DNA of 64,000 nt from Candidatus Saganbacteria bacterium (GTDB lineage Bacteria; Margulisbacteria; WOR-1; XYC2-FULL-46-14; WPAF01). The position numbers and the translations under genes were made by a program. The notes below the pieces were generated by a model. The model worked only from the letters and a program-made list of their open reading frames with translations, was not told the origin of the DNA and searched no databases. Location: NCBI GenBank assembly GCA_016223205.1, contig JACRPM010000001.1:61072-125071 (forward strand). The letters are read 5' to 3'. Below are positions 9,627 to 10,490 of the stretch, piece after piece; position 1 is the first letter of the stretch, and the number at the start of each line of letters is the position of its first letter.

Positions 9627-10490
9627 ATGAGTGCCAATTTAGAACAGGCTAGAGCGGTAAGTTCGACGACCAGAGCGCCCCGATCCTTGGCGCGCGACTG
9701 GCGGCACCCCACTACCAGAGCTAATATTAGAGATCTTATTGGATTGGTGCGCCAGAATCTATTTGGCGATGAGCAGGCATTTTCATTCCTGCCGTTAGGC
9801 GCCAAGGTCGTTGCCCGGGCATTGTGGCGCACGTTGCGAAAGATCAATTTAGCCAGGAATAGCGGCATAGCCCCGGGCGCCAATCCCCCCGCAGCTCTGG
9901 GCAAAGTTGAACCTGAACAAGTGATGAATTCCCGGCAGATCCCTTTTAAGGATTACTCTGCCGATATCCAGGCTATTGTTACTAATCTTTACAATAGAAC
10001 CTATAATGATGATCGCTGGGGAGAACGATTTGAATTTTCCACGATGGTCTTGGAGTTGAGCGATGGAACATCGGTCTCAACGGTCGGCATGGAAATGACA
10101 TCCGGCGAGACCTGCACGGTCGCCCATAATATGGACCAGTTAGATTGGATCTTGGAAAAAGCCGGGGAACGAGGCCAAATGAGGCCGGAAAGATTAAGCG
10201 GGAGGATCCGCTTCTATTCTTTCCATACCCATCCTCAAAATGAAGGCCTTGAATTGCTGGGAACATTCGTCCATGATGACGGCCTCTTTTACACGCAATT
10301 AAGCCCGGGGGATCTATTGTCCGCAAAGGGATTGCTAAAATATTGCGGCGAGCGATTGAGAGCAAAAGGCTTTACCGGCCAAATTGAGATCGTCGAGGCG
10401 GCCCTCCCGGTCCCCCTGATACCCTTGGATGAAGCTAATACCGGTTACTATGTCGCCAGTCTTACCCTCCAAATCCCCGCACTGTCCTAA
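9627..10490 (+). CDS. Orphan with JAB/JAMM(MPN+)-like metal-binding motif
   Basis: E136 ... FHTHP (H200, H202) ... LSPGD (S226, D229). Confidence 0.6.
   Translation: MSANLEQARAVSSTTRAPRSLARDWRHPTTRANIRDLIGLVRQNLFGDEQAFSFLPLGAKVVARALWRTLRKINLARNSGIAPGANPPAALGKVEPEQVMNSRQIPFKDYSADIQAIVTNLYNRTYNDDRWGERFEFSTMVLELSDGTSVSTVGMEMTSGETCTVAHNMDQLDWILEKAGERGQMRPERLSGRIRFYSFHTHPQNEGLELLGTFVHDDGLFYTQLSPGDLLSAKGLLKYCGERLRAKGFTGQIEIVEAALPVPLIPLDEANTGYYVASLTLQIPALS

Follow-up and report, generated by a model that had tools for sequence, protein, structure and literature searches.

JAB/MPN enzymes are defined by a tight zinc motif, HxH-x7-S-x2-D. Prokaryotic JABs such as Mec+ trim the C-termini of sulfur-carrier proteins, and many MPN domains are non-catalytic scaffolds. 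Among the divergent JABs, the Tox-JAB-2 motif consists of E, H[ST]H, S and D, and clades without the ubiquitin-tail tunnel, including RadC/Tox-JAB, may be nucleases (Zhang et al. 2012, PMC3482391). Here we analyzed a gene from a Candidatus Saganbacteria bacterium of the Margulisbacteria, which lies in a 64,000-nucleotide stretch of DNA (assembly GCA_016223205.1, contig JACRPM010000001.1, positions 61,072 to 125,071; hereafter the window, whose own numbering is used below). The open reading frame (ORF) starts with ATG, occupies positions 9627-10490 on the + strand and encodes 287 amino acids plus a stop codon; 21 relatives and a confident structure model support it as the coding sequence of a protein with the JAB/MPN fold. 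We consider it likely that the product is a soluble protein without a classical export signal that represents a rare, previously unannotated family of JAB/MPN+ (JAMM) zinc hydrolases.

The gene had been described as an orphan in the original prediction, which was made from the sequence alone, and this description held for one kind of search but not for another. A word-indexed search of 5.8 billion proteins with the query alone retrieved only the query itself, but phmmer, run exhaustively on 1.84 billion cluster representatives, returned 21 relatives at E <= 1e-3. The best of these, P0002, is 283 amino acids long and 45% identical along its full length (E 3e-57). Most relatives are stand-alone proteins of 255-355 amino acids, whereas in 2 of the 21 the JAB-like module is internal to a giant protein: P0020, of 2585 amino acids and with HEAT repeats, and P0021, of 7232 amino acids. 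The modules lie at about residues 1875-2117 of P0020 and 5005-5169 of P0021, and the contigs that encode the two proteins, both from metagenomes, measure 83 kb and 131 kb. Nearly all relatives are singleton clusters of metagenome origin. Within the phylum, the gene is present in 2 of 146 genomes, namely the source genome (G000) and a genome of the same class but a different family (G037), whose homologue has 456 amino acids and matches at E 4e-10 in a pairwise BLASTP comparison. A word-indexed profile search found the query and one already known member, P0018, and nothing further; pattern-based scans of IMG/VR and of the representative genomes in GTDB yielded no additional copies; and a metagenome locus search returned a single locus (L008, contig Ga0233425_10000021), which carries the homologue P0004. 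The family was not found described in literature searches.

The residues read as a JAMM motif in the original prediction (E136, H200, T201, H202, P203, S226, P227, G228 and D229) all match the translation, and H202 and S226 are, as claimed, separated by 23 residues. Conservation was counted in an alignment of 19 sequences (A1) with 21-45% identity to the query. Seven columns are invariant in all 19 members: E136, H200, T201, H202, P203, A259 and P261; T223, D229 and G251 are nearly so. The E136 codon (10032-10034, +) specifies the candidate general base for activating a zinc-bound water, and H200-T-H202-P (10224-10235, +), with which a strand closes, supplies candidate zinc ligands. S226-P-G-D229 (10302-10313, +) stands at the N-terminus of the helix formed by residues 227-246. 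Position 229 is D in 18 of the 19 sequences and E in the other, while position 226 is S in 15, N in two, T in one and H in one. D229 is thus a candidate third zinc ligand and S226 a candidate for the residue that stabilizes the reaction intermediate. Equivalents of E136, HTHP and SxxD are retained in both giant proteins. One HxH is not a rare occurrence in 287 residues, but conservation across 19 aligned members argues that the motif did not arise by chance.

The most distinctive feature of the family is the stretch that separates the two halves of this motif. The spacer from HxH to Ser measures 16-27 residues in all 19 members, compared to seven residues in 21 and eight residues in 2 of 23 canonical Prok-JABs from the source genome and relatives. 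Since the long insertion that had been noted in the window gene occurs in every member, it is a defining trait of the family and not a quirk of one gene. Based on this comparison and on the secondary structure of the AlphaFold2 model, the family-specific insertion between HxH and SxxD corresponds to residues 203-225 (10233-10301, +). In the model it folds into a beta-hairpin (213-215 and 221-223); a DG-x-(Y/F)(Y/F)T motif is conserved within it, and T223 is nearly invariant.

The fold was predicted with AlphaFold2. Supplied with alignment A1, the program gave a model with a predicted local distance difference test score (pLDDT) of 86.7 and a predicted template modelling score (pTM) of 0.83, while a single-sequence model (pLDDT 43) was discarded. 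Model and structure alignments place an MPN/JAB core at residues 109-284 (9951-10478, +). Its first half is composed of a helix (112-127), E136, two strands (138-143 and 149-151) and a second helix (169-185), and its second half of a strand with the HTH (194-203), the hairpin, the helix opening with SPGD (227-246) and two further strands (253-262 and 274-283). The motif residues occupy the canonical JAMM places in this model, as the Glu precedes strand 2, HxH closes a strand and SxxD opens a helix. We aligned the model by VIA-align with 48,161 representative chains, and rows 1-21 of the result were all JAB/MPN proteins (Z 6.1-8.5) matched over model residues ~109-284. The matches included BRCC36 (Z 8.5), DSY2949 (2KKS, Z 7.9), Pyrococcus JAMM1 (PfJAMM1, 5LD9, Z 7.9), Rpn11 (Z 7.7-7.8), Cap3 (9ILD, Z 7.6), RadC (Z 7.5), the Rpn11 homologue of Caldiarchaeum (Z 7.0), the Bil deubiquitinase (8TYY, Z 7.0), BubCD (9EA5, Z 6.8), Sst2 (Z 6.3) and CSN5 (Z 6.3); AfJAMM (1R5X) scored Z 5.3. 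The best Foldseek matches in the PDB, a comparison that had been suggested as a check on the prediction, were JAB/MPN proteins as well, at E 7e-3 or weaker. Model, VIA-align and Foldseek therefore agree on a JAB/MPN fold. Although the Z scores are moderate, the assignment is well supported because the matches are homogeneous and the motifs occupy corresponding places. From this topological equivalence we infer that E136, H200, H202 and D229 would meet at one zinc site.

Several observations weigh against this assignment. First, Z scores of 7-8.5 lie in the range where the tool warns that only a common arrangement may be shared, and the Foldseek E-values are weak. Second, the family departs from the canonical HxH-x7-S-x2-D spacing. 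Third, none of the sequence methods ties it to a JAB family. For the 287-residue protein, Pfam and NCBIfam gave no match at E <= 10, the hidden Markov models (HMMs) for Prok-JAB (PF14464), JAB (PF01398) and RadC (PF04002) matched none of the 19 members at E <= 1, and a sequence profile search of the PDB gave chance matches only (E ~1). When hhalign was run against an alignment of the 23 Prok-JABs, the HxHP strand alone was aligned (probability 20%, 37 columns), as it was with a DUF4329-like protein of phage OP1 (probability 10%) and, not significantly, with one single Prok-JAB. Lastly, the bond that is cleaved is uncertain because a nuclease rather than a peptidase activity has been proposed for RadC and Tox-JAB clades that share this motif (PMC3482391).

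The best matches of the 19 members across Pfam, NCBIfam, PADLOC and PHROGs were scattered, each involving a single member, at E 0.0016 or weaker, and PADLOC and PHROGs gave no significant match for any of the 19. A scan of the 146 phylum genomes with PF14220 returned no match, and its controls were silent too. Among the nearest feature neighbours in a protein atlas were Toxin-JAB1 (0.87) and DUF4329 (0.86), both below 0.9, from which the tool regards a score as more than a lead, and in a viral structure library the model matched a mixture of JAB, RadC and deaminase folds.

One alternative is that the protein is a JAB-fold enzyme that cuts a non-protein substrate, for instance a nuclease of the kind proposed for RadC/Tox-JAB, which we think unlikely. 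RadC ranks with the best structural matches (root mean square deviation 3.1 over 113 residues), and the HTH of the family fits the H[ST]H of Tox-JAB-2, for which, as a divergent JAB, the nuclease argument has been made (PMC3482391). However, the nuclease proposal for RadC/Tox-JAB is itself a prediction only, no DNA-binding domain or neighbour with a role in DNA metabolism was seen, the hhalign comparison with the phage OP1 protein was not significant and PF14220 was unmatched.

If the protein is instead a JAMM hydrolase, as we favor, one zinc ion would be held by H200, H202 and D229, E136 would activate the zinc-bound water, and S226 would stabilize the tetrahedral intermediate. The predicted outcome is cleavage of a peptide or isopeptide bond where an extended substrate tail ends. 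Access of the substrate would be shaped by the DG-x-YYT hairpin, which would lie next to the active site, together with a helical hairpin at the N-terminus. We consider it very unlikely that the protein is an MPN scaffold without catalytic activity or that the gene is non-functional. Non-catalytic MPN domains are indeed numerous and the odd spacing could disturb the metal site, but the metal-binding and catalytic set of the family is invariant or nearly invariant at 21-45% identity, unlike that of dead MPN domains, and the gene is preceded by a promoter and a ribosome-binding site and its start is conserved. The ribosome-binding site, AGGAAAGAG (9613-9621, +), was read in the sequence 5 nucleotides 5' of the ATG, and the closest homologue, P0002, likewise opens with MSANL, in support of the start codon at 9627.

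The gene had been placed between thiC and thiL, and both flanking genes were identified: thiC upstream at 8418-9581 (PF01964, E 3.7e-184) and a thiL-type gene with the AIR-synthase fold downstream at 10510-11433. The original prediction had allowed for a role in ThiS processing. Processing of a ThiS/MoaD-type sulfur carrier for thiamine synthesis would account for the position of the gene, and Mec+-type JABs trim carrier C-termini. We nevertheless regard such a role as most improbable. In another genome of the same family (G003), where ThiC is 79% identical, thiL starts 4 nucleotides past the thiC stop codon with no gene between them, so the ~0.93-kb segment that separates thiC and thiL in the window is a lineage-specific insertion. 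The restriction of the gene to 2 of 146 phylum genomes argues in the same direction, as do the unrelated contexts of its homologues, since no thiamine neighbours were present at the G037 or Ga0233425_10000021 loci. In G037, the homologue is followed by a 269-residue ORF without annotation and then by a nucleotidyltransferase-like gene, identified by reading of its sequence. At the metagenome locus, an APH-family kinase gene lies divergently upstream of the P0004 gene, and seven tRNA genes in a row lie directly downstream (9204-10423). None of the neighbours is common to the three loci read (window, G037 and L008), no toxin-immunity neighbours and none belonging to Bil or to the cyclic oligonucleotide-based antiphage signaling system (CBASS) were found there, and neither a ThiS/MoaD-like carrier nor a ThiF/MoeB-type E1 is encoded near the window gene or its homologues.

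A sulfur-carrier cluster was found elsewhere in the source genome (C13:106810-112270; locus L049:1810-7274). It comprises, in order, a Prok-JAB of 128 amino acids, a sulfite reductase that carries a ferredoxin domain, a ThiS-PALP fusion of 369 amino acids, a second PALP enzyme, ThiS (92 amino acids) and ThiF (271 amino acids). Because this is the classical layout of a sulfur-carrier system processed by a JAB, a thiamine or sulfur-carrier role is unlikely for the window gene, and its substrate is probably neither a thiamine protein nor a sulfur carrier. For annotation, this means that the gene should not be labelled a component of the thiamine pathway despite its position. For the canonical Prok-JAB of the C13 cluster, the ThiS-PALP fusion encoded beside it offers itself as a candidate substrate. 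In addition, the slot upstream of thiL varies among relatives: it holds thiC in G003, a 473-residue DUF4116-repeat protein in G004 (L044, C16, 34-1455) and a 318-residue protein without a Pfam match in G005 (L045, C3, 2433-3389).

The N-terminus, which had been described as unstructured, is so only in part. Residues 1-17 have pLDDT values below 50, and the first three blocks of ten residues average 46, 48 and 81, but residues 31-78 consist of two confident helices. The low-confidence segment, residues 1-29 (9627-9713, +), is probably disordered, rich in Arg, Ser and Thr, and without a hydrophobic signal. Residues 30-80 (9714-9866, +) form the two-helix hairpin (helices 31-45 and 57-78, pLDDT 81-94), which according to alignments A1 and A2 is kept in the closest subgroup only. 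The Kyte-Doolittle mean over 19 residues peaks at 1.23, compared to the cut-off of 1.6 used for membrane helices, and the hydrophobicity scan revealed neither a signal peptide nor a membrane helix in any family member; for P0020 and P0021, too, a simple scan of this kind found no N-terminal signal peptide. The secretion that had been proposed is therefore unsupported by classical export signals, and an action on ubiquitin is likewise unsupported. The source genome does encode the flagellar-type export gate FlhA (C1:16595-18559, L042; E 9e-248), and no flagellin N-terminal domain was found in its 92%-complete assembly.

Upstream of the gene, a promoter block with the sequence CTGAAAT-N-CCCCAAATCT-GACGATATATA was read at 9578-9609 (+). 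It contains a -35-like GAAA (9580-9583) and, after 15 nucleotides, a -10-like GACGATAT (9599-9606), and the -35 element overlaps the thiC stop codon (TGA, 9579-9581) as had been claimed. A similar arrangement, GAAA-N15-AACGATAA, precedes the homologue in G037. In the 1.57-Mb genome, the general motif (T/G)AAA-N15-NNCGATA(A/T) occurs 101 times; an ORF follows closely at 90 of these sites, and most of the sites begin with GAAAT(T/C). Many of the ORFs behind it are unannotatable and have basic, Arg-rich N-termini, and PFK-like and LacI-type genes, as judged by reading of their N-termini, are found behind it as well. We therefore rejected the idea of a promoter specific to orphan genes, given that the motif also precedes these housekeeping-looking genes; it looks like a general promoter type of the lineage. 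No sigma factor in the genome reaches the cut-off for FliA_WhiG (best 140.7 versus 189.6 bits).

In addition to the general motif, a longer block of 32 nucleotides is near-identical at five sites in the genome, the window and four others, with the consensus CTG(A/C)AAT(C/T)C(C/A)(G/A)CCCCAAATCT(G/C)ACGATATATA and a similarity that ends sharply upstream of it. Two copies on the - strand (C6:~25000 and C6:~23105) stand before Pkinase-domain genes (C6:23983-24960 and C6:22197-23054; 325 and 285 amino acids, respectively). A third (C2:~55066, +) precedes a G8/Ig-domain (Big_7) protein of at least 1133 amino acids that starts near C2:55102, and a fourth (C6:~139846, +) precedes a gene of unknown function encoding 377 amino acids, which starts near C6:139891 and is followed by an M23/FlgD-Ig/NHL protein. 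This near-identity suggests either co-regulation or copying of the promoter. Since the block is common to two Ser/Thr kinase genes, one may speculate that the window protein takes part in a protein-modification or signaling programme.

The shared block and the disordered N-terminus also bear on the proposal, made in the original prediction, of a secreted deubiquitinase-like effector or toxin. Such a protein, whether a deubiquitinase or another hydrolase, would reach another cell by a non-classical route, with the N-terminus as its export signal, and would be co-expressed with eukaryote-like kinases. The N-termini are of low complexity and probably disordered in every family member, the domain recurs inside proteins of 2585 (with HEAT repeats) and 7232 residues, the family is patchy (2 of 146 genomes), the 32-nucleotide block is common to two Pkinase-domain genes and the G8/Ig-domain protein of at least 1133 residues, FlhA is encoded yet no flagellin N domain was found, and the atlas similarities to Toxin-JAB1 and DUF4329 are weak leads. 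We nevertheless find this explanation rather unlikely. The protein has no signal peptide, lipobox or membrane helix and no RHS, PAAR, LXG or other trafficking domain; the three loci read have no conserved immunity-like neighbour; the giant proteins carry the domain internally and not in the C-terminal position of a toxin; PADLOC and PHROGs were empty; the atlas scores stay below 0.9; and no host is known for the organism. A bolder version, in which the family would be a new class of JAMM-type effector, exported via the disordered N-terminus and possibly the flagellar-type gate, co-expressed in this reduced genome with the two kinases behind the same 32-nucleotide block and acting on the proteins of another cell, seems to us improbable. 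To our knowledge, JAMM-fold enzymes are not among the known bacterial deubiquitinase effectors, and if this version were true it would be a first among them.

Returning to the JAMM hydrolase that we favor, the family keeps the catalytic residues of the tight JAB/MPN motif with a hairpin of 16-27 residues inside it. That a split motif is tolerated provides a handle for finding JAB enzymes missed by motif- and HMM-based annotation. Its rarity and patchiness, its use as a module in giant proteins and the promoter shared with kinases point to a lineage-specific programme of protein modification or interaction in Margulisbacteria, which are uncultured and poorly studied. Should the substrate be a ubiquitin-like or host protein, the family would constitute a new enzyme class for that biology.

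The window protein belongs to no described JAB family, as is apparent from a comparison with each of the closest ones. It resembles the Prok-JABs (PF14464; AfJAMM 1R5X, PfJAMM1 5LD9, Mec+) in being a stand-alone protein of a single domain, in its alpha/beta MPN fold (5LD9, Z 7.9; 1R5X, Z 5.3) and in the equivalent structural places of Glu, HxH and S-x-x-D, but it differs from them in lacking an HMM match, in the spacer of 16-27 rather than 7-8 residues, in an extra N-terminal extension of ~100 residues and in the absence of an adjoining ubiquitin-like, E1 or sulfur-carrier gene. With Tox-JAB-2/DUF4329 (PF14220) and Tox-JAB-1 (PF15659) it shares a motif in which H[ST]H is combined with E, S and D (PMC3482391), weak atlas feature similarity (0.86-0.87) and occurrence in very large proteins. 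There is, however, no HMM match, the DUF4329-like phage OP1 member has a short spacer, and in contrast to the Tox-JABs the family has neither RHS or secretion-linked N-terminal domains nor an immunity gene, and its module is internal, not C-terminal, in the giant relatives. The CBASS Cap3, Bil deubiquitinase and BubCD proteins have the MPN fold in common with it (Z 7.6, 7.0 and 6.8, respectively), but none of the 19 members has a PADLOC match, and no CD-NTase, E1/E2 or ubiquitin-like gene lies nearby. Finally, the eukaryotic JAMM deubiquitinases BRCC36, Rpn11, CSN5 and AMSH/Sst2 are among the best structural matches, and their MPN core is also decorated by insertions near the active site, although their identity to the window protein is 9-13% and no MPN- partner subunit is evident here. 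In the eukaryotic proteins, Ins-1 precedes HxH and Ins-2 follows SxxD, whereas the insertion of the window family lies between HxH and SxxD.

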